Positions 26,986 to 41,512 are shown, numbered from the stretch's first letter. The stretch: DNA of 64,000 bases from Candidatus Nomurabacteria bacterium (GCA_037130925.1 JBAXSC010000003.1:18712-82711), one strand, 5' to 3'. The notes: generated by a model from the letters alone, not told the origin. Translations and numbers: made by a program.

Positions 26986-27010
26986 AATTACAAATTTTAA
27001 TTGTTATGAA

Positions 27011-27205
27011 TTATTCTCCGTCTTGGAAGAATCTTTTTGGCAGAAATGCTGTTATTATAGATGATAAAAATAATATGGCAGATATTATTAATAAATAAAA
27101 ACCTAATTCTTTATTATCTAAAAATGTACCAAGCATAAAGCTTATCATTGTTAAAAGTAATAAGCCTTCTAAAATTGATTGTCGATCCGATTTTTTTTCT
27201 TTCAT
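27011..27205 (-). CDS. Small membrane protein
   Basis: 64 aa with two hydrophobic helices. Confidence 0.35.
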   Translation of the reverse strand: MKEKKSDRQSILEGLLLLTMISFMLGTFLDNKELGFYLLIISAILFLSSIITAFLPKRFFQDGE

Positions 27206-27300
27206 TTTTATTTAATTTTGAGTGAACAATTTTGTTACTGAATATATTAAACAATAAATATAAATTTTTGTCTAAAAAATAGTCATTTTTGATATATTTT

Positions 27301-27316
27301 TAAACAAAGTGTTTAT
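27301..27316. promoter_or_regulatory. Palindromic operator-like site, copy 1
   Basis: TAAACAAAGTGTTTAT; near-identical to 28530-28545. Confidence 0.4.
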
Positions 27317-27324
27317 TTTAAGCA

Positions 27325-27717
27325 TTAAATAGATCTTAATTCTTTTCTTAAATTCTCAAATTCAGAATAATCTTGAAATAGTTCTTCTCCTTTTTTAATG
27401 TCTTTTATAGATATTATCAAAGTTTGATTTTTAACAGTTTTTTGAGAAATATTATTTATAGTTTTTGAATGATTGCAAAATCTTATATTATCAAAAGATA
27501 AATGCCAAATATTTTTTATTTTATCTTTATATCCATAATGTTTTATGAAGTCTCTTTCTATTTTGTCTAATTTTAACAGTTCTTTATTTTTTATAAATAG
27601 ATCTAAAGATTTATTTTGTTTATAAATTATCTTATTAGATTTTATATTTTCTTCAGCAAATAAACCAAGTCCTTTAATTTGTTTGCTATTGTCTATATAA
27701 GTTTTAACGAAAAACAT
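27325..27717 (-). CDS. SET-domain protein (putative lysine methyltransferase)
   Basis: IKGLGLFAEENIKSNKII, RFCNHSKTINN (NHS-x-x-N), IKKGEELFQDYSEF. Confidence 0.65.
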   Translation of the reverse strand: MFFVKTYIDNSKQIKGLGLFAEENIKSNKIIYKQNKSLDLFIKNKELLKLDKIERDFIKHYGYKDKIKNIWHLSFDNIRFCNHSKTINNISQKTVKNQTLIISIKDIKKGEELFQDYSEFENLRKELRSI

Positions 27718-27726
27718 AATTTTATT

Positions 27727-28449
27727 TTAGTAATTAAAATCTTTTGGTGAAAAAGGATTAAAATTTGTACCAATATCGTAAGTGTCCAAACCTTCTTTTT
27801 GCTTAATTATTTTTATTACTCTTTTTGTTATTGGAAGCATTAATATTTCCCAGAGAGTACAAAATACAACTACTGTAACAGTTAGAGGTATAAATTGAGA
27901 CCATGAATACCAGCCTAAAAACAAAACTCCAGATAAATTAAATATCGTATTATCAAAAGTTTGTCCGAATAATGTTGATAATATATATCTAGCACCTTCA
28001 TATTTGCCTTTAGTCCAGATTTTCATTTTTGCTAATATAAATGAATTAGTAAATTCTCCAGTAGAAAAAGCTGCGAGTGATGTTAAAACTAAAATAGGAG
28101 AACTTCTAAAAACAAAATTAAATTCATTGTTATGTGTAAAAGATGGATCTCCTGGAATCAATGAATATAAGTAAGCTATCAAACTCATAAAGAAAAAACA
28201 GAAAAATCCAGACCAGATAACTTTTCTAGAAATTCTGTATCCATAAATTTCTGTAAAGATATCATCTAAAATATAAGTGATAGGGTAAGTCAAGGTTCCT
28301 ACAGACCATAGAGTACCAAACATTCCAAATGTTTTAAAAGAAGTCATACTATTTATAATCCAATCAGAAAACCAAATTAATGCAAAAAATATTAGATATT
28401 TATGTCTATGTATAAAAGCTGTTTTTGGGTTTGTTATTAAATGTTCCAT
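27727..28449 (-). CDS. yhhQ: Queuosine-precursor transporter, YhhQ/DUF165 (VUT) family
   Basis: YPITYILDDIFTEIYGYRISRKVIWSGFF block and about 6 TM helices. Confidence 0.7.
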   Translation of the reverse strand: MEHLITNPKTAFIHRHKYLIFFALIWFSDWIINSMTSFKTFGMFGTLWSVGTLTYPITYILDDIFTEIYGYRISRKVIWSGFFCFFFMSLIAYLYSLIPGDPSFTHNNEFNFVFRSSPILVLTSLAAFSTGEFTNSFILAKMKIWTKGKYEGARYILSTLFGQTFDNTIFNLSGVLFLGWYSWSQFIPLTVTVVVFCTLWEILMLPITKRVIKIIKQKEGLDTYDIGTNFNPFSPKDFNY

Positions 28450-28529
28450 AATTTTATATATTTATTATAAGACTATTAAACAATAATCTTGTCAAATATA
28501 CAAAAAATCAGCTCTTTTTTCTTAATTTT

Positions 28530-28545
28530 TAAACAAATTGTTTAT
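28530..28545. promoter_or_regulatory. Palindromic operator-like site, copy 2
   Basis: TAAACAA-A-TTGTTTA perfect 7-1-7 palindrome in the divergent yhhQ / wHTH intergenic region. Confidence 0.45.
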
Positions 28546-28560
28546 TTTTTGATGTTTCTC

Positions 28561-28570
28561 GTGATATAAT
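28561..28570 (+). promoter_or_regulatory. Extended -10 promoter giving a leaderless mRNA
   Basis: GTGATATAAT; the -10 ends 6 nt before the ATG at 28577. Confidence 0.55.
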
Positions 28571-28576
28571 TTTATT

Positions 28577-29425
28577 ATGAAAAAAGATTTAAACTTAAAT
28601 AAAAAGCCTATTGAAGATCTATTATTAAACATTTTACAAAAGGGTCCTATTTTGATTTCGGATTTGATATATAGTCTTTCTAAAGAAAGAGGAAATACTA
28701 CAAAGCAGGGAGTTTATAGAGTTTTAAGAAAATTAAATAACGAAGAAAAAATAGTTATTAATAAAAAACAAGTTTCTTTAAATTTGCATTTTATTAAGAA
28801 AATGAATAATTTTTTCTCTTTGGCACAATATTTTTATATTTCAGATCTTTCTAATTCAAATGACTTTTTGTGGCTTCAAGATTCAGAAAAAATATCTTAT
28901 TATTTTAAAAATTTGAATTTGTTAGATGCTTTTTGGTCTCATGTTTTTTACATGTTGAATGAAAGTATAAATATAGAAGAACCTGTGTTTTTTTATATGC
29001 CACACAATTGGTTTTATTATGTTAGACAAGATACAGAAGAGGTTATTTTAAAAGATTTACAAGAAAAGCCTAGACCTGTATATTTAACTATTTTTAATAA
29101 TAGTCCTTTAGATAAGGATTCTCAAATAAGTTATAGAAAAAATAATATACAATGTAATATTATTTCTAAAAATTTTTTTGATAAGAAAGATTTTTATTTT
29201 AGTGTTATGGGTGATTATATTTTAGAGACTCCGGTAGATTTGAATATCGTCAAAGATATTAATAAGTTTTTCGAAAATACTAAAGTTTTTGATGAGAAAG
29301 CAAAATTAGAATTATTATCTATAGTTTCAAAAAATGGAAGGAATAAACTGATTATATCTAGGAATAAAAAGAAAGCAGAAGAATATAGAAAAATATTGAG
29401 TAAAGACTTTTTTATTAAGAAATAA
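28577..29425 (+). CDS. Putative transcription regulator with N-terminal winged helix
   Basis: LLLNILQKGPILISDLIYSLSKERGNTTKQGVYRVLRKLNNEEKIV resembles wHTH (MarR/TrmB-like) domains. Confidence 0.4.
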   Translation: MKKDLNLNKKPIEDLLLNILQKGPILISDLIYSLSKERGNTTKQGVYRVLRKLNNEEKIVINKKQVSLNLHFIKKMNNFFSLAQYFYISDLSNSNDFLWLQDSEKISYYFKNLNLLDAFWSHVFYMLNESINIEEPVFFYMPHNWFYYVRQDTEEVILKDLQEKPRPVYLTIFNNSPLDKDSQISYRKNNIQCNIISKNFFDKKDFYFSVMGDYILETPVDLNIVKDINKFFENTKVFDEKAKLELLSIVSKNGRNKLIISRNKKKAEEYRKILSKDFFIKK

Positions 29426-29532
29426 TTCTTTTGTTAAGAGAATTTAACATAAAAATTTGACTCTATTATATTTAATATGTTATAAAAAGAGTACTTAAAT
29501 ATAAGTAATCTTTTTTAATTAAAATTTCAGTA

Positions 29533-30036
29533 ATGAGTGTAGTAAAAATTAAAGTATCGTTCTTTCTATTTGTTTTTTTAGTTTTCTTTTCTTTGAATTT
29601 ATATTCAATGAACATTTCAGTTTCTAATTTTAAAAAATTAATCGATATTAGCCAAAAGGCTCATAATCTTGATAATTATTTTAGAAAAAGGCATATGCCT
29701 TTAGCTGGACATGGAATGAAGTTTGTACTAGTTGCTGAGAAGTATAATTTATCTTATAGTTTTTTACCTTCTATTTCTATAATAGAAAGTACAGGAGGAA
29801 AAAAATCTTTTTATTGTAATCCTTTTGGATTTGGAAGGAAAAGATTTACTTCTTATGATGAAGCTATAGAGTATGTTGCTCAGACTTTGTCTGAACACAA
29901 ATATTACAAAGGTAAGTCTCTTTATCAAAAATTGTCTGTATATAATTGTTGTGATAAACATTATAAACAGAAGATTTTTGAAACAATGCAAAAAATTGAA
30001 AACGAAAAAACAAAGGAACCTGCACATGAAGTGTAG
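29533..30036 (+). CDS. Secreted glucosaminidase (GH73)-like peptidoglycan hydrolase
   Basis: Signal/anchor; PLAGHGMKFVLVAEKYNLSYSFLPSISIIESTGGK...NPFGFG; paralogue of 48650-49234. Confidence 0.45.
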   Translation: MSVVKIKVSFFLFVFLVFFSLNLYSMNISVSNFKKLIDISQKAHNLDNYFRKRHMPLAGHGMKFVLVAEKYNLSYSFLPSISIIESTGGKKSFYCNPFGFGRKRFTSYDEAIEYVAQTLSEHKYYKGKSLYQKLSVYNCCDKHYKQKIFETMQKIENEKTKEPAHEV

Positions 30037-30081
30037 GTTTTCTGTTTTTATATTATTAATGATAAGATAATTATAATTAAT

Positions 30082-30561
30082 ATGAAAAAACTTAATATAA
30101 TTTCAACTTCAAAAGATTCAACTTCAAAGATTTTAAGTAATTTATCACATACTCCATTTATTTATGGAGGTTATTCTTTTTATTCAGTTGAGTCTGCTTT
30201 ACAGGGTATTAAATTTGAAGATCATAAGGAAAGACTAAAAGTGTTTAAAATGAAAGGCTTAGATGCTTTAAAGGCTGGTAGAAAATTGAATGAAAATAGT
30301 AAAGGTAAAAGATATGTTTATTGGGACGATAAAAGAATTTTATATAATTCTGACTCCCACAGACTTTTAATATCTACTTTTATAAGAGAGAAAGTTAGGC
30401 AAAATTTAAGTGTGCAAAAAGCTTTAATAAGTACAGAAAATTTCTTTATATATCATGATGCTGGAATTGAAAATAAAAAAACTTCTTTACCAGAAAGGTT
30501 ATTTATTGAAATTTTATTATCTGAAAGAAAAATACTTTTAAAATTGAAAAGTTTAAAATAA
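30082..30561 (+). CDS. NADAR (YbiA/DUF1768)-like protein
   Basis: LSNLSHTPFIYGGYSFYSVESALQGIKF matches the NADAR N-terminal signature. Confidence 0.5.
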   Translation: MKKLNIISTSKDSTSKILSNLSHTPFIYGGYSFYSVESALQGIKFEDHKERLKVFKMKGLDALKAGRKLNENSKGKRYVYWDDKRILYNSDSHRLLISTFIREKVRQNLSVQKALISTENFFIYHDAGIENKKTSLPERLFIEILLSERKILLKLKSLK

Positions 30562-30567
30562 AAATTT

Positions 30568-31041: not shown

Positions 31042-31065
31042 TAGTCTTGATTTTAGTTTTTATTG

Positions 31066-31074
31066 TGATAGTAT
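31066..31074 (+). promoter_or_regulatory. Extended -10 promoter, TGATAGTAT
   Basis: Part of the 17-mer ATTGTGATAGTATTTAT (31062-31078) that is repeated at 31475-31491. Confidence 0.5.
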
Positions 31075-31119
31075 TTATTAGGTATCTTATTTTATTTTAC
31101 ATTTTTAAATTTTAAAAAC

Positions 31120-31389
31120 ATGCCGCTTCGTACAGACGATTGTGATCTTCGTGATGTGTCATTTAATATGAGTCATGGTGGAAATGGGGATTTTTATGCA
31201 ACTTTGACAGAGTATCCAAACGACGAATTACCTTCTGGAGCAAAAGAATTTAAACAAATTCATTATAGAATGAGTATGTCAGGAGGATTTGCTACTAGAT
31301 ATCCGGAAGTAAAAAATGCTTTTGTTGCTTTGTATAGAGCTATGGAAGCTGCAGGACTGAATGAATTTCCTTCAGGACCATCAAAGTAA
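31120..31389 (+). CDS. Hypothetical protein (G+C-richer orphan)
   Basis: 89-aa ORF with its own promoter and terminator; codon composition visibly less AT-biased than its neighbours. Confidence 0.45.
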   Translation: MPLRTDDCDLRDVSFNMSHGGNGDFYATLTEYPNDELPSGAKEFKQIHYRMSMSGGFATRYPEVKNAFVALYRAMEAAGLNEFPSGPSK

Positions 31390-31410
31390 AATATTTTTTA
31401 CCACATTACT

Positions 31411-31437
31411 AAAATCCCAGAAATGGGATTTTTTTAT
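31411..31437 (+). terminator. Intrinsic terminator
   Basis: AAAATCCCA-GAAA-TGGGATTTT followed by a T-run. Confidence 0.8.
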
Positions 31438-31459
31438 ATTATATATAAAAATAATATAT

Positions 31460-31487
31460 TTGACACAATTATTAATTGTGATAGTAT
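31460..31487 (+). promoter_or_regulatory. Sigma70-type promoter
   Basis: TTGACA (31460-31465), 16-nt spacer, TGaTAGTAT (-10 at 31482-31487). Confidence 0.6.
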
Positions 31488-31530
31488 TTATCTGTTAACA
31501 AAATTTGTTCATTCATAAATATTATTAAAA

Positions 31531-32178
31531 ATGGAAATATTTAATTTTAAGCAATCTATTTTATCTGCTGGTGGAAATCCGGAATCTTGTAAGTATATAT
31601 CCAAAGAAGATTTGGATATCTTAGTAAAAAAGGCTATTTATATCAAAAATAGGAGAGATAAATTTCCTTCTTTTGATGTTATTCCTGTTAATTCTTTAGA
31701 GGAAGGAATTGAACTATGTAATTTCCAAGAAGTTCATAAAAATCGATTTTTGGATGGTTTGAAAATTTTTAGAAAAGATAAAAAATTAAAACCAAAGAAA
31801 ATAATTTTAGGTTCTTTCACTGAGTATGATAAGTCTGTAAATGGAGGGTTGAATAAAATATTCGCAGACTATAAGCTCAAGATGGTTGAAAATTACGCGT
31901 ATTATTTTTTAGGTCTAATGATTTTAGATGCTAAAAAACGCAAAGTTGCAAATGCTTGCAGAGATTTTTATTTAAAGGATTACAATGATACAATTTCTGA
32001 ATTTGAGATTTTTTTAAATTCTTCAGAAGAAAAACCTTGTTCTAAAGGTGTTAGATTTATAGGAATTTCTAAAAAAAATGACTGGAAAGAATTAAATACT
32101 TTTAGTTTATTAGATTCTACTACGTTATTACCCAGGATTCAGAGACGTCATTTTTATATGTTAGAAGAAGACGTTTAA
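31531..32178 (+). CDS. Hypothetical protein
   Basis: 215-aa ORF flanked by a promoter and a terminator; no recognisable motif. Confidence 0.45.
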   Translation: MEIFNFKQSILSAGGNPESCKYISKEDLDILVKKAIYIKNRRDKFPSFDVIPVNSLEEGIELCNFQEVHKNRFLDGLKIFRKDKKLKPKKIILGSFTEYDKSVNGGLNKIFADYKLKMVENYAYYFLGLMILDAKKRKVANACRDFYLKDYNDTISEFEIFLNSSEEKPCSKGVRFIGISKKNDWKELNTFSLLDSTTLLPRIQRRHFYMLEEDV

Positions 32179-32197
32179 AAAGATTGTAATTCAGTTT

Positions 32198-32241
32198 AAG
32201 ATCCATAGACTATTAACTATATAGCACTAGGATCTTTTTTT
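32198..32241 (+). terminator. Intrinsic terminator (large loop)
   Basis: AAGATCC (32198-32204) pairs with GGATCTT (32230-32236), followed by T7. Confidence 0.5.
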
Positions 32242-32249
32242 ATTTATTA

Positions 32250-32258
32250 TGTTATAAT
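32250..32258 (+). promoter_or_regulatory. Extended -10 promoter, TGTTATAAT
   Basis: 26 nt upstream of the ATG at 32285. Confidence 0.55.
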
Positions 32259-32284
32259 TTCTTTCCTTAATTGTAACTATATAT

Positions 32285-32533
32285 ATGAAGAAAGAAGAAT
32301 TAAATAAAATAATAGCAGACCTCGAAAGAATAAGAGATGTAAATAATGCTGACAATCACGATAAAATCGAAGTTGCTGACACAATTGCAAGAATTAAATT
32401 AGATCAAGAATTAAGTGAGTCAAACAGAGAGTCTTCTCGTAGAATGTTTAGATTTACACAATGGATAATGCTCGCAACTGTGGTACAAGCTCTCGCTGTC
32501 GTGCTTCAGACATATATTGCTTATAAAAGGTAA
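32285..32533 (+). CDS. Small tail-anchored protein
   Basis: 82 aa, charged helical N-terminus, C-terminal TM WIMLATVVQALAVVLQTYIAY. Confidence 0.4.
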   Translation: MKKEELNKIIADLERIRDVNNADNHDKIEVADTIARIKLDQELSESNRESSRRMFRFTQWIMLATVVQALAVVLQTYIAYKR

Positions 32534-32544
32534 TCTGTTTTAAT

Positions 32545-32575
32545 AAAACGCCTCAATATTGAGGCGTTTTATTTT
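32545..32575 (+). terminator. Intrinsic terminator
   Basis: AAAACGCCTC-AATATT-GAGGCGTTTT. Confidence 0.85.
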
Positions 32576-32601
32576 GACATAATTCTGTTTTATGTTAATA
32601 T
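32574..32601 (+). promoter_or_regulatory. Sigma70-type promoter
   Basis: TTGACA (32574-32579), 16-nt spacer, TGtTAATAT. Confidence 0.6.
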
Positions 32602-32649
32602 TATATAGCTAAAAAACGTTCTTTTTATTAACTTATAAAACATTAAATT

Positions 32650-33081
32650 ATGCAAATGGTGGAAGCGAAAAAAACAGGCTTTACTATTAAAAGTGTCGAA
32701 AGTCTTTCTATTTTTAAATTAATAGAAAGTGAAGATGATTCTCCTGTAGATAGAGGATTTTTAAATAGATTCTTACTTAGGAAATGTAATATTTCACAGA
32801 GGAAATATTTAAGAATAAAAAATCAATACATTTATGAGTCTGGTTTTCCTGAAAAGGAATTTCATCATTCTTTATTAGATCACCTAATTTTTGATTCTTG
32901 TGTAGAAACATTTTCTGATGATTTTTCTACACAATTTCTTATTTTAAATTTCATGGAAATCTCAAAAATAGATGATTTTAATGAATTTTTAGATGAAATC
33001 GTAGACTTAAATCTAAAATGGAAAGGTATAGTAGAATTAACTATTGTTGATTCTCTATTTTTTTCATTTAAATTTATTTAA
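32650..33081 (+). CDS. Hypothetical protein
   Basis: 143-aa ORF flanked by a promoter and a terminator. Confidence 0.4.
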   Translation: MQMVEAKKTGFTIKSVESLSIFKLIESEDDSPVDRGFLNRFLLRKCNISQRKYLRIKNQYIYESGFPEKEFHHSLLDHLIFDSCVETFSDDFSTQFLILNFMEISKIDDFNEFLDEIVDLNLKWKGIVELTIVDSLFFSFKFI

Positions 33082-33106
33082 ATTTAAATGTTTTTGTTAA
33101 TTTTTT

Positions 33107-33153
33107 AAACCCATTAATTATCTTTAAAATATGATTAATGGGTTTATTTTTTT
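33107..33153. terminator. Bidirectional terminator
   Basis: 12-bp stem AAACCCATTAAT / ATTAATGGGTTT followed by T-run; between convergent genes. Confidence 0.7.
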
Positions 33154-33248
33154 TACAGAATATTTAATTTATATATGTTGCAATATTAATATTTTAATTT
33201 TATTAATAGGACTAATTTAGAAAAATAAAAACAAAAATTACACAAAAA

Positions 33249-33725
33249 TTACCAATTTTTAAATGGATTTTCTATAAGCTTCGCATTTTTATATCTACTG
33301 TCATAAGTAACTTCCTCTCCTAGCCATTCAGGTTTTTCAAAATTTTCATCTTCTGATTTTAATTCTATTTCTGCTATAATCAAGCCTTCATTTTCTTCAT
33401 GAAAAATATCTATTTCCCATTTTTGTTCAGAATTTTTGATTGGGACTATGTATCTTGTTTTAGATATTATTTTATTATCACAAAATTCAGATAAAAATAT
33501 TTTTCCATCATTTAATGGAATCTCATATTCAAATTCTGAATGAGAAAAAGAGTTTTTATTTCCGCCTTTAATAGTCAGGAAAGCCTTATCTGAAGAAGTT
33601 CGTACTCGTATTGTTTTGTTTTTATCATTATTTAAATATCCTTGTGTATATAAAGTTTCTTTAGTTGTAAACTTTTTCCAGTTGTTATTCTTTAAAAGAA
33701 ATTTTCTTTCTATTTCTAAATTCAT
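33249..33725 (-). CDS. CYTH-domain protein (CyaB/ThTPase-type triphosphate tunnel metalloenzyme)
   Basis: N-terminal MNLEIERKFLL (the EXEXK signature) and a 158-aa beta-tunnel-sized product. Confidence 0.8.
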   Translation of the reverse strand: MNLEIERKFLLKNNNWKKFTTKETLYTQGYLNNDKNKTIRVRTSSDKAFLTIKGGNKNSFSHSEFEYEIPLNDGKIFLSEFCDNKIISKTRYIVPIKNSEQKWEIDIFHEENEGLIIAEIELKSEDENFEKPEWLGEEVTYDSRYKNAKLIENPFKNW

Positions 33726-33730
33726 ATATT

Positions 33731-33739
33731 TGTGGGCGA
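33731..33739. repeat. Left copy of the 9-bp att core TGTGGGCGA
   Basis: Identical to 40672-40680 (antisense of the tRNA-Val 3' end); lies 5 nt from the CYTH start codon. Confidence 0.55.
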
Positions 33740-33943
33740 AATGGTTTTTGATTGGAACATTATGGAAATGGAGATTTTAAGATGGAAAAGGATTTTATCT
33801 TTTCATCCAAAGAGATTAAAAGTCTTAAATATATCAATAAAAAGTAATAATTCTTGATATTTTATTCTACGATTAAGTAATAGAAATATAAGAGTTAGAA
33901 AAAGAATGTATCATTTTTTAAATGATTTTATATATTTTGTTAT

Positions 33944-33973
33944 GTGACATATTAATGATTAATATGGTATAAT
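33944..33973 (+). promoter_or_regulatory. Strong promoter of the structured RNA
   Basis: GTGACA, 18-nt spacer, TGgTATAAT (-10 at 33968-33973). Confidence 0.65.
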
Positions 33974-33979
33974 CATTGT

Positions 33980-34122
33980 GCCCAAAAACCAAATAATGAA
34001 GATAGTATAAGAGCTTAATAGCTAGCTATTGATTCTGACCAGTATAGGCATTCTATGAGGAACAGAATCAGTAGTCTATCTATTGGTTTTTGGGCACCTT
34101 ATGGGGTGCCTGTTTTGTTTTT
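33980..34122 (+). ncRNA. Candidate structured RNA of unknown class (stand-alone sRNA or cis-regulatory leader)
   Basis: 15-bp perfect closing helix (33978-33992 / 34083-34097). It encloses the palindromic hairpin AATAGCTAGCTATT (34017-34030). It also encloses an 8-bp helix (34030-34037 / 34063-34070) with a nested 5-bp hairpin. A GC-rich terminator follows immediately. Confidence 0.5.
34092..34122 (+). terminator. Intrinsic terminator overlapping the 3' arm of the RNA closing helix
   Basis: GGCACC (34093-34098) pairs with GGTGCC (34105-34110), 6-nt loop, then TGTTTTGTTTTT. Confidence 0.75.
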
Positions 34123-34165
34123 ATACAGAGCACTATTTATTCAAATAAATTTTAATATTAAAAAT

Positions 34166-34489
34166 ATGGACATAGATGGTATATCAAACTTTCTGGTAGG
34201 TATTGTAATTTTTATTTTGGTTTTAGGTCTTTACTTTTTACCAACTATAACAGCTATGCGTCGTAAAAAGAAAAATGATGGTGTTATTTTGCTTATAAAT
34301 CTTTTGGTTGGTTGGACCGTTGTTGGTTGGTTGATTGCTTTAGTTATGGCAACTAGTGAACCGTCAGTAGTTGTTAATACTTCAGGGAGTATGGCTGATG
34401 AGTTAGAAAAACTTCATAATTTAAAAGAGAAAGGAATTTTGTCAGAGAAAGAATTTGAGCAAAAGAAAGCGTCACTTATTAATAAGTAA
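34166..34489 (+). CDS. Superinfection-immunity (T4 Imm-like) membrane protein with C-terminal SHOCT domain
   Basis: Start moved to the ATG at 34166 because the upstream part of the track ORF is the RNA structure. YFLPTITAMRRKKKNDGVILLINLLVGWTVVGWLIALVMA matches the Imm_superinfect pattern. ELEKLHNLKEKGILSEKEFEQKKASLI is SHOCT-like. Confidence 0.7.
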   Translation: MDIDGISNFLVGIVIFILVLGLYFLPTITAMRRKKKNDGVILLINLLVGWTVVGWLIALVMATSEPSVVVNTSGSMADELEKLHNLKEKGILSEKEFEQKKASLINK

Positions 34490-34493
34490 TTGT

Positions 34494-35441
34494 ATGTATT
34501 TATTAAGATTAAATAAAATTCAAGTATATATTAAAGTTTTACTTATAATCTTTCTGTTTCCTCTTTTATTTTTATTTCCATTAGGGACTATAATATATAT
34601 TTTGCTTTTAATAATATTCACATCTAACAAATTTTGTGTCTCTATTGATAGTTTTTTAGAGGATAAAATTTATTCTTCTGGCTTCTTTAAAAAAAGTAAA
34701 GGAATCAATATTTATAAAGAAACATTAATAAATTATTTAGAAGATGGAGAATTGTCTAGTGAAGAAAAAGAAAAATTAAATAATATTATTCAAGAATATA
34801 ATTTATCTGATAAGGATATTGAAAAATGTAAAAATATTGGTTTTAATTCATTTTTTACAAATATAACTTCCGATAGAAGAATAAGTGAAGATGAAAGATT
34901 AAAACTTATAAAAATCCAAGAGGATTTAGGGGTAAATATAGAGGATACAAATTACAGTCAGGAAATTTTTAATAAATATTACTCACTAAATCAGATAGAG
35001 GATGGAATATTACCTAAAGTTAATATTGAAAATAGTCAATTAGGTTTTTCTTTACAAAAAGGCGAAGAACTTTATTATGTAAGTAGGGCTTTTATTATAA
35101 AAAATAAATTAATTACACAAAGAATTAATTATAGCGGAATGACTGGTTCTATAAAAATAATGAAAGGGCTCAGATATAAGGTTGGAAGTATAAAAGTTCA
35201 GCCGGTAAAAATAGAGACTTTAGCAGTAGAAGATAGTGGTGTTATTTATTTATCCTCTTCAGGTTTCCATTATTTAGGAATTAAAAAACATTTTGATTTT
35301 CCTTATACAAAAATAAGTCACTTAGAGATAAGAGATGGAGTATTATATTTATATAAACAAGGTAAAGAAGCTCCTTTTATGATTTCTATGAGTGATTATG
35401 AAGTATCTTTGGCGGTAATTTCTTTCATGTTGAATAAATAG
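34494..35441 (+). CDS. Membrane protein with TerB-like helical repeats and C-terminal bacterial PH-like domain
   Basis: First ATG is 5 nt after the upstream stop. Two N-terminal TM helices. Repeats DGELSSEEKEKLNNIIQEYNLSDKDIEK and RISEDERLKLIKIQEDLGVNIED. C-terminal beta-rich segment GVIYLSSSGFHYLG...ISHLEIRDGVLYLYKQG. Confidence 0.4.
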   Translation: MYLLRLNKIQVYIKVLLIIFLFPLLFLFPLGTIIYILLLIIFTSNKFCVSIDSFLEDKIYSSGFFKKSKGINIYKETLINYLEDGELSSEEKEKLNNIIQEYNLSDKDIEKCKNIGFNSFFTNITSDRRISEDERLKLIKIQEDLGVNIEDTNYSQEIFNKYYSLNQIEDGILPKVNIENSQLGFSLQKGEELYYVSRAFIIKNKLITQRINYSGMTGSIKIMKGLRYKVGSIKVQPVKIETLAVEDSGVIYLSSSGFHYLGIKKHFDFPYTKISHLEIRDGVLYLYKQGKEAPFMISMSDYEVSLAVISFMLNK

Positions 35442-35500
35442 TATTTAGTTATTATTTGTATTTTAAATTTAAGTATATTAATCACTGTATTTTTTTATTA

Positions 35501-35530
35501 TTGCTCATATTTTTTGAATTATGATATAAT
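35501..35530 (+). promoter_or_regulatory. Promoter of the protease cassette
   Basis: TTGCTC, 18-nt spacer, TATGATATAAT (35520-35530), the same 11-mer used by chromosomal genes. Confidence 0.6.
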
Positions 35531-35548
35531 CTTTTCATAGTATATTTT

Positions 35549-36292
35549 ATGATGGATTTTTCTAAAGTTGTTGAAAAGATAAAACCAAGTATAGCTTTTA
35601 TAATAACTGGAAACGGCACTGGTTCTGGTTTTGTTTTTCAAAAAAAAGGAATATTAATAACGTGTAATCATGTGGTAGAAGGAAATCAATTTGTTTCAAT
35701 ACGTTTTCCAGATATTGATAATTTTATTCATGCTGAAGTTGTTTTGAGAGACAATGAACATGATTTAGCAATTTTAAAGTTTCAAGATGATTCAAGACAT
35801 CCTTTATCTGTGTGTGAAGTTTCTAATATAAAAGAAGGTATGCCTGTTATATTTTCAGGATATCCTTTAGATTTGCAGGTTTTAACAACACATCAGGGTA
35901 TATTGTCTTCTATATCTAAAGACCAGACAGGGAAGACAAATTATCTTATTGATGGAACTGTTAATTCTGGAAATAGTGGATGTCCTTTAATGGATAAAAA
36001 TGGTGATGTTGTAGGTATTGTAAATGCTAAAAATATAGGACAATTTAGTGGTAGTGATTTATTTAATAAAGTTAAATCTATGTCTTCTGGACTTGTATCT
36101 ATATCAGGAGTTGATATATCAATGATATTAAAAATATTATCTAGTAATACCCAAATGGGTATAGGTTATGCAGTTCCGGTAAGTTATGTTCCAGAACATA
36201 AAGATGTTAGTGATATACTGGTTGAAAAAGTTGTTATTGAAGATGACGGGAAGAAAGATGTGAAAGATAAAACAAAAATAATTAAATTATAA
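35549..36292 (+). CDS. Cytoplasmic trypsin-like (S1/DegP-type) serine protease, no signal peptide, no PDZ
   Basis: Catalytic triad contexts ITCNHVVEG (His), NEHDLAILKF (Asp), GNSGCPLMDKNGDVVGIV (Ser). Confidence 0.8.
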   Translation: MMDFSKVVEKIKPSIAFIITGNGTGSGFVFQKKGILITCNHVVEGNQFVSIRFPDIDNFIHAEVVLRDNEHDLAILKFQDDSRHPLSVCEVSNIKEGMPVIFSGYPLDLQVLTTHQGILSSISKDQTGKTNYLIDGTVNSGNSGCPLMDKNGDVVGIVNAKNIGQFSGSDLFNKVKSMSSGLVSISGVDISMILKILSSNTQMGIGYAVPVSYVPEHKDVSDILVEKVVIEDDGKKDVKDKTKIIKL

Positions 36293-36297
36293 AAAAT

Positions 36298-36615
36298 ATG
36301 AACAATAAAAACAATTATACTTTTATATTTAAATCAGATGGAAGATATCTTGGATTTGTATTTGAAAATAATCTTTTTTCTAGAGATGGTGAATATCTTG
36401 GTTGGATAGAAGGTAATTTTGCTTGGGATAAAAATGGAAATTTTCGCGGAATAACAAATGAGATAAATGGACATATTTATATTTTTATAAATAAATTTAG
36501 TATTCCTCCAATTAAAAGAATTCCTAAATTGGATAATATTATACCTGTGATACCTCCTCCACAACAAAATATTTTACCAATTAGATTGCAAATAGAATTC
36601 CAAGACGGTTTTTAA
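36298..36615 (+). CDS. Small beta-repeat protein with Pro-rich tail
   Basis: Three DG-x-Y/F-x-G-like repeats (SDGRYLGFVFENNLF / SRDGEYLGWIEGNFAW / DKNGNFRGITNEINGHIY), then IPPIKRIPKLDNIIPVIPPPQQNILP; starts 5 nt after the protease stop. Confidence 0.45.
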   Translation: MNNKNNYTFIFKSDGRYLGFVFENNLFSRDGEYLGWIEGNFAWDKNGNFRGITNEINGHIYIFINKFSIPPIKRIPKLDNIIPVIPPPQQNILPIRLQIEFQDGF

Positions 36616-36662
36616 TAACTAATTATTGATTTTTAAATTATAAGAGCTATATTAAATTATAT

Positions 36663-37187
36663 ATGCTCGAAGAGAATAATGTAAATACACAATTAGATAA
36701 TTATAATGGTGGTCCTAAAACAGAAGAGGGTAAAATTATCAGTAGTCAAAACTCTAAAACTCATGGAATATTTTCTTCTGAATTTTTATCTCAAGAAGAA
36801 GAGGAAGAGTTTGATTTTATATTTAAAGGAATATTAGAAGACTACAATATTCAAGAAGGGACCGCTCAAGCTATATTGGCTCTAAATCTGACTATGTCTT
36901 TTATAACATTAAGAAGAATAAATAAAGTAGAAGCTAATATTTTAGAAGATGAGCTTTCTAATAATCAATCTAAAAGTGATTTAAATCTAGCTAAATTAAA
37001 TTTACTAGCTAGATATAAAGTATCAGCCGAGAATGGTGTTTATAAGGTTTTGGCGATAATTAAAAATGTTGGTGATGATGTTAGGAATAGCAGGTTCGAA
37101 GCTTCTCTAAGGGCAAATTCTAGCCTTATACGTGATATTATGGGGGATAAATTCTTCTCTAGGAATAATAAAAAAATGGTTATATAA
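36663..37187 (+). CDS. Hypothetical protein
   Basis: 174 aa; N-terminal GGPKTEEGKIISSQNSKTHGIFS motif, acidic stretch, helical remainder. Confidence 0.4.
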   Translation: MLEENNVNTQLDNYNGGPKTEEGKIISSQNSKTHGIFSSEFLSQEEEEEFDFIFKGILEDYNIQEGTAQAILALNLTMSFITLRRINKVEANILEDELSNNQSKSDLNLAKLNLLARYKVSAENGVYKVLAIIKNVGDDVRNSRFEASLRANSSLIRDIMGDKFFSRNNKKMVI

Positions 37188-37217
37188 TATTCATATTACA
37201 AAACGAACTTAAAACCT

Positions 37218-38066
37218 ATGAGGAAGCTAAATATAAAAGACTACGCATACATTTCAAAGTTATATTCTGAAATAAAAAATACATTGAAATCTAAAAATAA
37301 TATTAATTTAGTAGAAAAATTATCTTTAGTTGTTAATTTTTGTGTTCTCTTAGAAAAATTAATAAAATTAAGACTCTCAGTAGAAAATAAGTTATTGGTT
37401 TATTATGGTAAAAGTTTTAATGATGATTTTATATTTGGGATTTTGAAAGATAAAATTCCTCCAACAAGCTTTGAAGCAAAAACTAAGACTTTTAATGAAG
37501 CAAATAATTTGTTTAATAAATTATTTGATGTTTTTTCTGAGAATGAAATATTATTGCTCGATAATATATACAATATAAGAAACGCTATTGTTCATAGTTA
37601 TTTTCAAGATAATAAAATATTAGATAGTGAGGAGAACATAATAAAAGATATTTCTACAATTTTAGATAAAGTTAACTCATTACTTGAAGAAATGTTTGGA
37701 AAAGAGGCTATAGCTTCAATAAAAATTGGAGGAGAAGAAAAGTATTCTAAAGAAGAGTTGGAAGAGGTATTGAGAGAACAGGTTAGAAAAAAGATTTTAT
37801 ATGGAAGAAATAAAAGGACTAATTATTTTTTTGATAAGCTTTCTATGATTAAAACAGAAGAATATAGTTTTCCAAATAATGGACTATCATGTCCAGCCTG
37901 TGGAAATTATTCACTAGAAGGAAAGGATATTGAAAATAATTTTTATCCAATAGCTGTATCAGTTTTTAATTATAAAGATAAAGATATTTACATATGTTCA
38001 AAATGCGGCCTTCAATTAACTAAAAGGGAATACGAAATCGCTAAAGAAATTAAATTTAATATTTAA
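37218..38066 (+). CDS. HEPN-like (Rx4H) protein with C-terminal CxxC...CxxC zinc ribbon
   Basis: All-alpha N-terminal 160 aa with NIYNIRNAIVHSYF (R-x4-H); C-terminus LSCPACGN ... YICSKCGLQL. Confidence 0.55.
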   Translation: MRKLNIKDYAYISKLYSEIKNTLKSKNNINLVEKLSLVVNFCVLLEKLIKLRLSVENKLLVYYGKSFNDDFIFGILKDKIPPTSFEAKTKTFNEANNLFNKLFDVFSENEILLLDNIYNIRNAIVHSYFQDNKILDSEENIIKDISTILDKVNSLLEEMFGKEAIASIKIGGEEKYSKEELEEVLREQVRKKILYGRNKRTNYFFDKLSMIKTEEYSFPNNGLSCPACGNYSLEGKDIENNFYPIAVSVFNYKDKDIYICSKCGLQLTKREYEIAKEIKFNI

Positions 38067-38071
38067 AAACT

Positions 38072-38707
38072 ATGATTAGAAAAAATCATTTTAGTCCTAT
38101 ACTAGATAATACTTTATCTAATCTTATAGACATGTTGGAAGTTCTGATTTCTTATTCAGAGAAATATCAAATTGAAGATAGAGAACTAAAAAGAAAAATA
38201 GATGGACTGTATATAGATATTTTGTGGTCCGCTAGAAAATTAGATTCTAGTTTAGATTATCCAGATACTATATTTGGAAATAAAGATTTAGTAGTTAAAA
38301 AGAAACATCAAGATATCAAAATATATGATGATAATTATAGAAAATCAATTCAAAACTTTATTAAGACAGTTTCAGAACTACCTATAAAGTCAAAGAATTT
38401 ATTTTTAATTGAAGTTGAAATTGACACAAAGGCAGGTGTAATCAAAAGATTAGATAATGGAAATATTTGTAAATTTAGAAGTCATAAAAATAGTAATAGA
38501 TTTAGTTTTATTACTAAAATAGCAAAAGGTTATTCTAAAGGTAAAAGTTTGGCAGAAAAATTACCTTACCTAAGTAAGGATATTAAAATAATTAATGAAA
38601 GATTATCTAAAGATTTAAACTTAGTTGATAAGTTTATAATTAATGACACTAAAAAACAAACAGGTTATCATTTAAATGATAACTTCTATAAAGTTAAATT
38701 GATATAG
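38072..38707 (+). CDS. Hypothetical protein (possible C-terminal DNA-binding helix region)
   Basis: 211 aa, starts 5 nt after the HEPN gene; no confident motif. Confidence 0.4.
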   Translation: MIRKNHFSPILDNTLSNLIDMLEVLISYSEKYQIEDRELKRKIDGLYIDILWSARKLDSSLDYPDTIFGNKDLVVKKKHQDIKIYDDNYRKSIQNFIKTVSELPIKSKNLFLIEVEIDTKAGVIKRLDNGNICKFRSHKNSNRFSFITKIAKGYSKGKSLAEKLPYLSKDIKIINERLSKDLNLVDKFIINDTKKQTGYHLNDNFYKVKLI

Positions 38708-38708
38708 T

Positions 38709-38768
38709 TAACCTTAATTCTTGCAATGTGAGTATTTTCTAATCTTGTAAAATAAGGTTATTTTTTCT
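38709..38768 (+). terminator. Possible terminator / large-loop hairpin at the end of the cassette
   Basis: TAACCTTA (38709-38716) pairs with TAAGGTTA (38753-38760), then T6; GTTAACCT is repeated at 38707 and 38774. Confidence 0.35.
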
Positions 38769-38824
38769 ATTGGGTTAACCTAAAACCAATTATATTTTTT
38801 CTTATAAAAATCTAAAATGTTCTT

Positions 38825-38974
38825 ATGACATTAGAAGAGTTTAAAGAAAAAATATTAGGCGAAGATATTAAAAATATGTCTAATAAAGACATAGAAGACA
38901 GATATAAATTTCATTTGAATTTTTTTAATACTGCTTTTAAAAAATGGAAATATAATAAATCTAAAATGATATAA
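38825..38974 (+). CDS. Small ORF upstream of the recombinase (candidate accessory/directionality factor)
   Basis: 49 codons, MTLEEFKEKILGEDIKNMSNKDIEDRYKFHLNFFNTAFKKWKYNKSKMI; ends 10 nt before the recombinase ATG; below the ORF-track length cut-off. Confidence 0.25.
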   Translation: MTLEEFKEKILGEDIKNMSNKDIEDRYKFHLNFFNTAFKKWKYNKSKMI

Positions 38975-38983
38975 TGGAAATAT

Positions 38984-40720
38984 ATGGAATCTCTTATTTA
39001 TGTTATTGGTTATGCTAGAGTTAGTAGTGTTGACCAAGCTAGAGGTAATGACAGCTTAGAGAATCAAGAATTTAGTATTAGAGAATACTGTAAACGAAAA
39101 GGATATATTCTATTTGAAGACAAAGTTTTTAAGGAAGCATTTACTGGGAGTAATACTTTTCGTCCCGCATATACAAAAATAAAAGAAATTTTACAAAGTA
39201 TTAATAATGGAAAGATTAAAAAAATAAAATATTTAATTTTTTATGATTTTGATAGATTAACAAGAGGTGGTTCAGATGAATACGAAAAGATATGGTCAGA
39301 GATGGAGACTTTCAGTGTTGAATTAAGAGATACAAAAGATGAAATAATTAAAGAGGATAGAGACTTAATGAAAGAAGAATTTGGTTTCGATTATAGTTTT
39401 TCTTGGGCAAAAGGAAGACCTAGTGAGGATATGGAAAAACAGAGAACTGAAGAAGCAAAGCGGGATAAAAAGAGAATTTTACAGAAATTAATTTTTTCAG
39501 AAATAAGATTAACTCAAAATGGTTATCAGATTGGTAAACCGGACTATGGTTTCAGAAACAAAAAGATTCTAGCTGGAACGAAAGAAAGATTTGTTCAGTC
39601 TCCTTATGAAGATGAAGCTAAGTTTGTTATTGAAATGTTTAATCTTAGAGCTGAAGGGGTTTTCTCAGATAATGAAATTTGCGACAAAATAAATGCTATG
39701 GGTTATAAGAGTGCTAGAAGAAAAAAATGGAGTAAGGACCAGCAAAATATTATTGGTTATACAGGTAGTGTTAAGTTAAAACCAAAAGAATTACAAAATT
39801 TTATAAAAAGAACTTCATATTGTGGAATTATTTGTAAGAAATGGACAAAATATATACCGATAAAAGCAAAATGGGAAGGTATAGTATCGATAGATTTATG
39901 GAATAGAGCAAACAGGGGAAAATTCTTTTTGGAGCAAGATGATAAAGATAAAGAATCTTTCATGTTGCTTAAAAATATAAATCCTAATTTTTCAAAAAAG
40001 AAACAAAAATATAATCCTAGTTTTAAATATAGAGGTATAGTTTGTTGCGATGTATGTGGCAATCAGATGACAGCTAGTTTTTCGCAAGGTAAAAGTGGTA
40101 AAAAGTTTCCTTTTTATCATTGTTCTAAAAATCATAAACAGTTTAGTAAGACTAAAAAAGAAGTTGAAGATATTATTGATAGCACTATTAATAGTATTTC
40201 TTTCAAAGAAAACTTTATTAAAGAACTTACAAAATCTCTAGAGTTTCAGTTTCAAGAACAAGAGAAAAATTTAGCAAAGTTTACTTCAGAGACAAATATT
40301 AATGTTAGTAATTTAGAAATTGAGAAATCTAAATTATTTGAAGCTTATATTAATGAGCAAGATGAATTTATTAAAAATGAAATAAGAGAAAGATTTAAAA
40401 GAAAAGAAGAGGAAATAGTGAAAGCTAGAAATGAAAGAAATAAAGCAGAGCTTGAAGAAGATGATGTGACTAACTTTTTAAGATTTGCTAAAGAATTAAT
40501 GGAACACCCAGAAAAAACCTTTGAAGATATTGATTCTAAAGAAGAATTACTTAGTGTTTTTAGTCTGTTTGTAGAAGACCTCCCAAGATACTCTGATTTT
40601 ATAAATGGAACACTAAATTTAACTAAATTTTTCAAGCTTAATAAGGAATTCAGTGATAATAAAAACTATTCTGTGGGCGATACAGGATTCGAACCTGTGA
40701 CATCTACAACGTCAATGTAG
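38984..40720 (+). CDS. Large serine recombinase (integrase)
   Basis: N-terminal resolvase domain VIGYARVSSVDQA (catalytic Ser). Recombinase domain, zinc ribbon CCDVCGN...FYHCSKNH, and a coiled coil. The last 47 nt overlap tRNA-Val antisense. Confidence 0.9.
   Translation: MESLIYVIGYARVSSVDQARGNDSLENQEFSIREYCKRKGYILFEDKVFKEAFTGSNTFRPAYTKIKEILQSINNGKIKKIKYLIFYDFDRLTRGGSDEYEKIWSEMETFSVELRDTKDEIIKEDRDLMKEEFGFDYSFSWAKGRPSEDMEKQRTEEAKRDKKRILQKLIFSEIRLTQNGYQIGKPDYGFRNKKILAGTKERFVQSPYEDEAKFVIEMFNLRAEGVFSDNEICDKINAMGYKSARRKKWSKDQQNIIGYTGSVKLKPKELQNFIKRTSYCGIICKKWTKYIPIKAKWEGIVSIDLWNRANRGKFFLEQDDKDKESFMLLKNINPNFSKKKQKYNPSFKYRGIVCCDVCGNQMTASFSQGKSGKKFPFYHCSKNHKQFSKTKKEVEDIIDSTINSISFKENFIKELTKSLEFQFQEQEKNLAKFTSETNINVSNLEIEKSKLFEAYINEQDEFIKNEIRERFKRKEEEIVKARNERNKAELEEDDVTNFLRFAKELMEHPEKTFEDIDSKEELLSVFSLFVEDLPRYSDFINGTLNLTKFFKLNKEFSDNKNYSVGDTGFEPVTSTTSM
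40672..40680. repeat. Right copy of the 9-bp att core TGTGGGCGA
   Basis: Antisense of tRNA-Val positions 67-73 plus 2 trailer nt; identical to 33731-33739. Confidence 0.55.
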
Positions 40721-40746
40721 CGCTCTACCAACTGAGCTAACCGCCC
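40674..40746 (-). tRNA. tRNA-Val (anticodon GAC)
   Basis: Minus strand: GGGCGGT-TA-GCTC-AGTTGGT-AGAGC-G-CTACA-TTGACGT-TGTAG-ATGTC-ACAGG-TTCGAAT-CCTGT-ATCGCCC-A. Perfect cloverleaf, no encoded CCA. Confidence 0.9.
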
Positions 40747-40790
40747 TAATTTTCAAATTATATCATAATTTAAATTTTTGAAAAATTTCT

Positions 40791-40801
40791 TATGATATAA
40801 T
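40791..40801 (+). promoter_or_regulatory. Extended -10 promoter, TATGATATAAT
   Basis: The -10 ends 9 nt before the ATG at 40811. Confidence 0.6.
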
Positions 40802-40810
40802 TTATTTATT

Positions 40811-41512
40811 ATGAAGAAAAATATTCCTGAAAAAATTATTTTAATTTCTGGTGGAAGTGATGGACTCGGTCTTGCTACAGCCAGAGCTTTATTTGAAAAT
40901 AATACAGTTATAATTCTATCTCCCGAAAAAGATAAAATGATAGAAATTAAAAAGCATTTTGATATTGATTATGTCGTGGCAGATGTGACAAAAGAAGAAG
41001 AAATAGAATTAGCTGTAAAAGATGTGATCAAAAAATATGGGCGTATTGATGTTTTAATAAATAATGCAGGGATTTGGATTGAAGGAAAACTCGAAGAAAA
41101 TGATTTTTCAAGAATTAAAAAAGTTTTTGATGTGAATGTTTTAGGATATATCCTTCTTACTAAAGAAGTTTTGCCTTATATGAAAAAGATAAAGAGTGGA
41201 AGAATAATAAATATTGTCTCTCAGGCTGGTCTTTATCCAAAAGCTGAAAGAAGTGTCTATCATGCAAGTAAATACGCTGTAAAAGGATTTATGGACTCTA
41301 TGGCTATAGAAGTAGCACCTTTTGGTATTTCTGTATCAGGATTTTATCCAGATAAAATGAATACTCATTTTTTTGAAAAGGCAGGAAATAAAAAGGCCTG
41401 TAAAGAATTTATTGATGTGGAAGAATCTGTGAGATGTATAGAGTTTTTAGTTGATACAAATTCTGATTTAAATATTCCAGAATTAGGTATTAAAAAATTG
41501 AATCAGTATTAA
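40811..41512 (+). CDS. Short-chain dehydrogenase/reductase
   Basis: ILISGGSDGLGLATARAL (TGxxxGxG-like), NNAG, YHASKYAVKGF (YxxxK). Confidence 0.85.
   Translation: MKKNIPEKIILISGGSDGLGLATARALFENNTVIILSPEKDKMIEIKKHFDIDYVVADVTKEEEIELAVKDVIKKYGRIDVLINNAGIWIEGKLEENDFSRIKKVFDVNVLGYILLTKEVLPYMKKIKSGRIINIVSQAGLYPKAERSVYHASKYAVKGFMDSMAIEVAPFGISVSGFYPDKMNTHFFEKAGNKKACKEFIDVEESVRCIEFLVDTNSDLNIPELGIKKLNQY

Follow-up and report, generated by a model that had tools for sequence, protein, structure and literature searches.

The window analysed here is a stretch of 64,000 nt from a Candidatus Nomurabacteria (Patescibacteria) genome, and all coordinates refer to it unless another contig is named. On its minus strand lies the gene for tRNA-Val(GAC), at 40674-40746 (the ARAGORN call is 40673-40746), and on its plus strand a gene for a 578-aa large serine recombinase (LSR), at 38984-40720, runs into the tRNA gene and has its stop 47 nt inside the antisense tRNA. 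We describe the evidence that the adjoining block, 33740-40671, is an integrated mobile element that was inserted at the 3' end of tRNA-Val(GAC) by its own LSR, a reading to which we assign a probability of about 0.92. We also describe a family of related elements, in which the attachment site attP lies inside the 3' coding end of the integrase gene itself.

The tRNA-Val locus and its direct repeat

The 9-mer TGTGGGCGA is present in exactly two copies in the 64 kb, at 33731-33739 and 40672-40680 on the plus strand, with a repeat period of 6,941 bp. The right copy is antisense to tRNA positions 67-73 plus two trailer nucleotides, and the left copy begins 5 nt from the start codon (33723-33725) of a minus-strand gene for a CYTH-domain protein (33249-33725; Pfam CYTH, E=1.5e-14). 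This gene forms the left host flank, while the right flank consists of a plus-strand gene for an SDR oxidoreductase (40811-41512; Pfam adh_short, E=5e-51) and of SecA. A first-pass annotation, made from the sequence alone, had described this layout, including the recombinase gene that ends inside the tRNA, and our ARAGORN, open reading frame (ORF) and domain calls agree with it down to the coordinates of the repeat; its description of the genes between the repeats as orphan or accessory is likewise borne out by Pfam, PADLOC and PHROGs. The left copy is the core of attL and the right copy the core of attR. The tRNA gene is still intact after integration, with the antisense of its T-loop, TCGAAC, at +17 to +22 from the core start.

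The shuffling that the first-pass annotation had proposed as a check gave a mixed outcome. The exact repeat is rare: about 0.07 copies of TGTGGGCGA are expected per 64 kb on both strands, two copies were reached in 0 of 100 shuffles, and the first-order Markov expectation for a same-strand copy within 18.3 kb upstream is 0.005. With AT-rich sequence on the left, 16% of Markov resamples reach a looser null, which is satisfied by any match of at least 9 nt across the tRNA end, and the repeat on its own is therefore suggestive and not decisive.

Empty sites in related genomes

Exact-protein look-ups of the window CYTH and SDR proteins returned the occupied contig alone. A homology search with the SDR flank gave many orthologues at 70-82% identity, and it was through SDR homologues at 79-82% identity that contigs with an empty site were reached. 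Two of these, L061 and L063 (both Candidatus Nomurabacteria, with an SDR 79% identical to that of the window), have an element-free site with the gene order SPOUT methyltransferase, CYTH (minus strand), tRNA-Val(GAC) (minus strand), SDR and SecA. Their junction sequence is ...TTCATATTTT-TGTGCGCGA-TACAGGATTCGAACC..., which reads through the site as ...TTCTAAATTCATATTTTTGTGCGCGATACAGGATTCGAACC... and gives an empty attB of ...TTCATATATTTGTGGGCGATACAGGATTCGAACC...; the empty site that the first-pass annotation had predicted is thus present in both relatives, except for one acceptor-stem base. L060, whose SDR is 82% identical, likewise lacks the block and has its SDR orthologue beside tRNA-Val.

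The borders can be read directly from these comparisons. In blastn, window segments 33249-33739 and 40669-41512 match neighbouring stretches of L061 with a 12-nt overlap, and 33740-40668 is missing from L061. In the alignment, the left junction of the window tracks L061 until the 9-mer and then diverges, while the right junction tracks L061 from the 9-mer on. The element borders are therefore exact to within the shared core, and the insertion accounts for a 6.9-kb strain-specific block in the window.

In the empty site (L061 5148-5160; window counterpart 33723-33740), the CYTH gene starts 5-7 nt past the 3' end of tRNA-Val, and the two are likely to be co-transcribed. The element parts them by 6.9 kb in the window, and since the empty site leaves CYTH no room for a promoter of its own, the insertion probably changes how CYTH is transcribed.

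Further blocks differ among the relatives, which makes the region downstream of tRNA-Val a variable hotspot. Window segments 26538-30565 (~4 kb, six ORFs) and 31043-33248 (~2.2 kb, four ORFs) are also missing from L061, and an 82-aa ORF at 32285-32533 is present in L060, where it lies directly beside tRNA-Val. Older insertions may have left remnants in the hotspot; neither 26538-30565 nor 31043-33248 yielded any trace of an integrase or tail.

The integrase

The window integrase matches the Pfam domains Resolvase (E=5.5e-13) and Recombinase (E=6.8e-9), with Zn_ribbon_recom slightly below its curated cut-off (E=1.6e-4), and the PHROG integrase family phrog_95. The catalytic S14 and residues R12, R60, R91 and R94 are present and invariant or nearly so in the family alignments, in which C355, C358, H379/C380 and H384 are conserved as well. 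Searching the PDB with the single sequence gave nothing, and a family profile reached catalytic domains only (TP901-1 catalytic domain, E=1e-14), so a full-length match had to be sought by fold. An AlphaFold model, built for the reconstructed long form of the protein that is described below, has a mean predicted local distance difference test (pLDDT) score of 84 and the canonical LSR layout, with long helices at 409-488. Its best Foldseek matches in the PDB are full-length serine integrases, namely the SPbeta-type complex 9dxd (E=5e-14 over 587 columns) and Bxb1 9iu2. The protein is an LSR with catalytic, recombinase and zinc-ribbon/coiled-coil parts. Its final 14 residues, after V564 (GDTGFEPVTSTTSM), are encoded by the repeat core and the antisense tRNA-Val.

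A family that targets tRNA 3' ends

The protein database holds 82 homologues of this integrase, mostly from Patescibacteria or Parcubacteria and most of them ~570 aa long, the closest being 50% identical to the window protein. In 56 of the 82, the C-terminus is a translated antisense tRNA (acceptor stem and T-arm), with ends such as ..LVTLRGIEPRLQE and ..VGDRGVEPLTSTTSM, while five or six carry a different, conserved tail with a WNT motif. At ten loci (the window and nine relatives), ARAGORN confirms that the integrase ORF overlaps an antisense tRNA, which is tRNA-Glu(CTC or TTC), tRNA-Gly(TCC) or tRNA-Val(GAC). The tRNA is always read in one register, with codon V564, an invariant GTN in an alignment of 14 sequences, antisense to N72-A73-C74. 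That alignment was also used to scan for loci, a broader one of 44 sequences being too diverse for this purpose, and it recovered at least four further family loci from a metagenome collection; no family member was among the matches listed in an IMG/VR scan. Targeting of tRNA 3' ends is a property of the family as a whole.

Three distant homologues, P0038, P0050 and P0071, have the WNT tail in frame on contigs without a tRNA. These contigs carry genes of plasmid or conjugation type (DnaG-type zinc ribbon, Replic_Relax, CBASS, TrwB and ArdC), and the three presumably represent unintegrated forms.

attP lies inside the integrase gene

A six-frame pattern scan found the motif V-x6-WN[TS]..E.EI..WK.. 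as an orphan segment at every integrated locus, a few kb upstream of the integrase and on the same strand. Across the loci of eleven relatives and the window, this tail segment either lies upstream of the integrase gene or is read in frame with it. We built a tail hidden Markov model (HMM) from the 11 other loci, with the window excluded, and searched it against the six-frame translation of the window, where it matched a single segment (E=2.7e-8; the next best match has E=0.12). This segment, VGEMVFDWNIMEMEILRWKRILSFHPKRLKVLNISIKSNNS followed by a stop, lies at 33732-33857 on the plus strand, has TGGAAC at +22 to +27 and doubles as the P' arm of attP. It begins inside the left 9-mer, in frame with the integrase over the circle junction, and joined to integrase codon 563 it reads ..NYSVGEMVFDWNIMEMEILRWKRILSFHPKRLKVL.. 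without a break in frame.

The joined arrangement is observed directly at another locus. Contig L004 (3011-11680) holds two 100%-identical, 4,333-bp copies of a related element in tandem at tRNA-Glu(CTC), and the junction between them is the joined P-core-P', across which the integrase continues to 595 aa and ends in ..LLVSQYYLGWNTIENEIIKWKTVFNKYPNRLLALTNYE. The L004 tandem may be a true tandem or a circular form assembled into the contig; L003 has the same element in a single copy. In the window, V and WN are separated by the same 6 codons, and in the same frame, as at the L004 junction.

From these loci, attP lies at codon V564 or just after it, within the 3' coding end of the integrase gene. 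Integration swaps a conserved tail of ~40 aa for, in the window, 14 tRNA-encoded residues, and long and short isoforms result. Because attP lies within the gene, the circular form encodes an integrase of 604 aa. Its C-terminus would consist of a flexible linker and then a conserved helix, WN-x-x-E-x-E-I-x-x-W-K, whereas in the integrated form the protein has 578 aa, the last 14 of them translated from the antisense tRNA. Between L003 and L005, 18 of 33 tail codons differ, 10 of them synonymously, and judging from such comparisons the tail appears to be under coding constraint.

Two relatives carry additional sequences of this kind. In L006, a 15-bp fragment of a tRNA-Glu 3' end (GTGACCCTACCGGGA) lies at 4772-4786; we considered it as attL and rejected it, since by the conserved tail the true attL, which has a GTGA core, lies 170 bp farther right. 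The fragment is probably a scar that an earlier insertion left at this tRNA. In L129, a contig that also encodes TrwB and ArdC, a second segment of the WNT type (AGYKVFRWNTTVRNIVKWNHTFAKFDLAA, followed by a stop) occurs at 20746, 9 kb downstream of an integrase that has its own in-frame tail.

Geometry of the att sites

The cores shared by attL and attR are short, from 4 to 9 bp in eight elements, with no long repeats. They are TGTGGGCGA in the window, GGTGA in L003 and L004, GTGA in L005 and L006, TGGTGA in L065, TTGGTAG in L064 and GTGCG in L010. Over seven family elements, the cores intersect in the antisense of tRNA positions 74-71, which in the window confines the crossover to 40673-40676; strand exchange within these 4 nt left the tRNA intact.

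The arms follow a common spacing on the side that carries the tail segment. Counting from the first base of the V codon, GAAC stands at +24, within TGGAAC, in every P' arm listed (eight loci), and at +19, as TCGAAC, the antisense of the T-loop, in the seven B arms read in register. Relative to the core, GAAC in the element-derived arm (attL) is thus 5 bp farther out than it is in the tRNA arm, a shift examined on one arm per att site. In the structure of the LI integrase bound to attP, the motif of the zinc-ribbon domain (ZD) occupies base pairs 16-24 in attP and 11-19 in attB, that is, 5 bp farther inward in attB (PMC3783163), and the shift in this family fits that rule. The integrase probably reads the tRNA T-loop (TCGAAC) as the ZD motif of attB, with TGGAAC as its counterpart 5 bp outward in attP. 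Applying the LI geometry would put the centre of the crossover near tRNA positions 72/71 (window 40675-40676), although GT (74-73) and TG (73-72) are alternatives for the exchanged dinucleotide.

The reconstructed attP of the window reads ...AAAAACTATTCTGTGGGCGAAATGGTTTTTGATTGGAAC... Here the arms AAAAACTATT and AATGGTTTTT, complementary at 9 of 10 positions, flank CTGTGGGCGA, and the centre of these inverted arms coincides with 40675-40676. Random junctions from the same window score 9/10 in 1.8% of trials (p ~0.02).

Movement within the family

Evidence for movement comes from L066, whose element (7206-11743) is 89.5% identical to the entire element of L004. The match breaks off exactly at the att cores; beyond them, the flanks in L066 contain no tRNA and bear no relation to those in L004. 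Rfam found nothing for the L066 target. The right flank of the L066 element (GTGAGCGTTCAGCAGATAGAACTTAGTTGG; integrase tail VSVQQIELSWF..) resembles a degenerate P' arm or tail rather than a host gene, and this copy may have inserted into an old attL or an attP remnant.

The window element itself retains an intact integrase ORF with its invariant residues, both cores and the 41-codon tail segment. Continued mobility is plausible for this reason, and from these intact parts we consider it somewhat probable that the element can still move.

Weighing the evidence

Several observations weigh against the reading of a tRNA-targeting element with a conserved exchange of tails. The GC content inside the element (~0.20-0.32) is the same as in the flanks, with no deviation in composition; islands commonly, though not obligatorily, differ from their host in this respect. 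Neither a second copy nor an excised circle of the window element was found, and the window integrase occurs on one contig only, with the next relative at 50% identity. LSR sites should be dyad-symmetric, yet this symmetry is weak in the window, neither the observed attP of L004 nor the reconstructed attP of L064 has arms matching at 8/10 or better, and the left half-sites (P and B') have no clear common motif. The symmetric 9/10 arms that the first-pass annotation described do exist, then, and they are weak against their null and not family-wide. In L006 the tail diverges after ~25 residues, and the target of the L066 element is not a tRNA, so the rule of tRNA target and tail has exceptions. 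Finally, the tail helix is of low confidence in the model (pLDDT 50-65).

Could the repeat be a coincidence? The block would then be part of a vertically inherited variable region that was deleted in the lineages of L060 and L061. The neighbourhood is indeed variable, with two further blocks missing from L061, the GC content is uniform, and an anchored match of at least 9 nt is not rare under the loose null. Against this, the borders of the insertion or deletion match the repeat to the nucleotide, they match the end of an LSR gene and a family-specific, in-frame tail that a model built without the window recovers at E=2.7e-8, and the same geometry recurs in at least eight unrelated loci. We regard coincidence as effectively refuted. 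That 33740-40671 is an integrated element, as the first-pass annotation had proposed, is upheld by the empty site in L061 and L063 together with the same core positions in the family elements.

Does the exchange of tails have a function?

Because attP overlaps the integrase gene, a change of tail follows from integration whether or not it matters to the protein. One explanation is that the swap is functionless: attP merely overlaps the end of the gene, the conservation reflects a constraint on P'-arm DNA or the need for an ORF end, and both forms behave alike. The best-conserved stretch of tail DNA, TGGAAC at +22 to +27, is indeed the likely ZD-binding motif, the predicted tail is of low confidence and comes after a complete set of LSR domains, and the tails of the integrated forms are arbitrary peptides encoded by tRNA. 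The conservation nevertheless reaches ~100 nt past the core, as against an LSR half-site of ~25 bp, and 10 of the 18 codon differences between L003 and L005 are synonymous. An amphipathic, helix-like pattern (W, E-x-E-I, W-K, Y-P-N-R-L) is kept among integrases that are 45-50% identical, and distant plasmid-borne members retain the WNT tail in frame. We think that a swap of no consequence has somewhat less than an even chance of being the right explanation.

A functional swap is, on the same comparisons, a tentative possibility. In the AlphaFold model, residues 558-569 form a disordered linker across the crossover codon, 571-586 form a helix of modest confidence and the remainder is disordered. 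The model shows no confident docking site for the tail helix, and for this reason we claim no structural mechanism.

A more specific and rather doubtful proposal is that the swap acts as a built-in state sensor, in which the recombination state of the integrase's own gene would set directionality, with the T-loop serving as the attB motif. The long form (604 aa), with its tethered WNT helix, would be biased toward integration, and the helix might shield the coiled coil from a co-transcribed factor of ~50 aa. The short integrated form would respond to that factor and be able to excise. Directionality could in this way be achieved without separate regulation of a directionality factor.

A candidate for such a factor is encoded directly upstream of the integrase. 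The ORF at 38825-38974 (plus strand; 49 aa, MTLEEFKEKILGEDIKNMSNKDIEDRYKFHLNFFNTAFKKWK..) has a homologue in the same place in all nine other loci aligned, and the consensus over the ten loci is MxLEEFK...G.E....S..EIE..Y......F....F..WK. It matches no Pfam family. As LSRs need a separate directionality factor for excision, it is the only candidate for that role in the element, and it may otherwise be a regulator.

Cargo genes

An all-against-all comparison of the element ORFs found that the integrase and the small upstream ORF are the only genes in common. The family module is therefore an ORF of ~50 aa, an integrase of ~570 aa and an internal attP, and the rest is variable cargo, mostly of defence type, in elements of ~4.1-10.6 kb. 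Relatives carry a reverse transcriptase, a type I/IIG restriction-modification methylase with an S subunit, a NucS-like nuclease, an AbiU2 HEPN protein with a DNA methylase, an aldo-keto reductase and a histidine phosphatase. These small elements, like that of the window, showed no genes for phage structure, replication or transfer.

The cargo of the window element lies on the plus strand. Its first gene, at 34055-34489, encodes a membrane protein with Imm_superinfect and SHOCT domains (Pfam E=2.9e-17; phrog_1039, 'immunity to superinfection'); its true start is likely to be 34166, and it is called as 107 aa on a Logan contig. Upstream, at 33944-34122, lie a promoter-like site, a structured RNA of ~120 nt and an overlapping intrinsic terminator. 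The promoter (33944-33973) is sigma-70-like (GTGACA-18-TG-TATAAT, 11/12), the RNA has a fold of -51.7 kcal/mol (z=-5.6), and the 3' strand of its closing stem overlaps the terminator at 34091-34122. Rfam has no match for 33978-34122, and the layout resembles that of a riboswitch or attenuator.

The immunity gene is followed by a gene for a protein of 315-328 aa with an N-terminal membrane segment (34455-35441), which has a weak match to PADLOC PDC-S48 (candidate; E=2.9e-9) and none in Pfam. A trypsin-like serine protease (35549-36292; Pfam Trypsin_2, E=8e-23; also the protease part of PADLOC RT-Protease_XI) adjoins a Bflower (4-fold beta-flower) protein (36298-36615; Pfam PF21784, E=4.9e-11). 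Next come a 174-aa orphan (36663-37187), a protein of 282 aa that is DUF3644-like in its N-terminal part and has a zinc ribbon at its C-terminus (37218-38066; PADLOC DUF3644, E=5e-4; zinc-ribbon Pfam match below the cut-off), and a 211-aa orphan (38072-38707), the two orphans having no match in Pfam, PADLOC or PHROGs.

The eight cargo ORFs include no gene for capsid, terminase, packaging, primase or replication, or capsid redirection in Pfam, PHROGs or PADLOC, and Pfam finds no relaxase, coupling protein or type IV secretion gene in the window element, as the first-pass annotation had stated. Distant family members on contigs L127 and L129, for their part, carry Replic_Relax, TrwB and ArdC. 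The same annotation had likened the element to a satellite or a defence island. The first label is unsupported, since genes for phage-related replication or packaging were not found, and 'small defence island carried by a serine integrase' is the better fit.

The phage-like matches nevertheless raise the question of a decayed prophage or phage satellite, of which only the integrase and the superinfection-immunity gene would still be left. Three proteins have matches of this kind: Imm_superinfect to a 'moron' family of phages (phrog_1039), the integrase to phrog_95 and the protease to PHROGs from phages. Pfam and PHROGs, however, show no capsid, terminase, portal, tail, lysis, primase or replication gene, and the matches listed in the IMG/VR scan include no family member. 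Eight related elements (4-10.6 kb) share one minimal architecture with differing cargo, which disfavours independent decay, and the more distant members sit on plasmid- or conjugation-like contigs with TrwB, ArdC and Replic_Relax. A prophage origin is thus improbable.

One neighbouring feature of the window is recorded here for completeness. ARAGORN calls a tRNA-Ser with anticodon ACT at 49850-49937, beside tRNA-Ser(GCT), and the pair is kept in three relatives (L060 16979-17066, L061 12342-12429 and L062 7158-7245). A bacterial tRNA-Ser with A at position 34 is unusual.

Comparison with known systems

Characterised LSRs, as far as is known, mostly target protein-coding genes. The window integrase has the domain set and fold of the LSRs of phages and integrative and conjugative elements (phiC31, Bxb1, A118/LI, TP901-1 and SPbeta SprA), although sequence similarity to solved LSRs is confined to the catalytic domain. 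It also shares with them a very short attL/attR core and the 5-bp shift between the attP and attB motifs (PMC3783163). Unlike them, the family targets tRNA 3' ends clade-wide, has attP in the integrase's own 3' coding region and is carried by islands of 4-10 kb without phage or conjugation genes.

In its setting, the element is closer to the tRNA islands with tyrosine integrases (P4-like), with which it has in common insertion at a tRNA 3' end, an integrase gene beside the tRNA, accessory or defence cargo, a flanking direct repeat and an empty site in relatives. It differs from them in using a serine enzyme and in having a repeat of 4-9 bp where such islands usually duplicate tens of bp of the tRNA 3' half, and arm-type sites are not expected here.

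Other systems in which integration alters the 3' end of a gene offer partial parallels. In the archaeal integrases of SSV1 type, which are tyrosine recombinases with a tRNA target, the gene spans attP and the integrated copy is split and disrupted; here just the last ~40 codons are exchanged, and the catalytic and DNA-binding domains are all kept. Retroregulation by lambda sib is similar in that integration changes what lies 3' of int, so that Int expression differs between the free and integrated states, although it acts at the RNA level through an RNase III site and leaves the protein sequence unchanged. A further parallel is mycobacteriophage BPs, in which attP lies in the 3' part of the repressor gene and integration alters the C-terminus of the product: the prophage form is 33 residues shorter, the part removed is an ssrA-like degradation tag, and the change is a switch of state (PMC4557955). 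The BPs integrase is a tyrosine recombinase (PMC4557955), and the gene altered in the present family is that of the serine integrase itself, not of a repressor.

Membership of the LSR superfamily and tRNA-island behaviour are both of well-known kinds. That a serine integrase targets tRNA 3' ends throughout a clade, that attP lies in the coding end of its gene and that a conserved tail is swapped as a result all appear to be undescribed: an incomplete search of the literature, in which absence of evidence is all that can be claimed, yielded no account of an LSR whose own gene holds attP at its 3' end, and none of LSRs that target tRNAs in Patescibacteria.

Implications

The mobile elements of Patescibacteria (candidate phyla radiation) are very poorly known, and this family provides elements with nucleotide-precise ends that shuttle defence genes into the tRNA loci of tiny genomes. 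For the biology of serine integrases and for genome engineering, it offers a clade that by nature keeps to one conserved kind of target, the tRNA 3' end, in which the T-loop is the likely motif. If the near-universal T-loop does serve as the attB motif, ready-made landing sites would exist in any genome. The rewriting of the enzyme's own C-terminus by integration is a natural experiment, and it makes the question of directionality testable with two defined isoforms.

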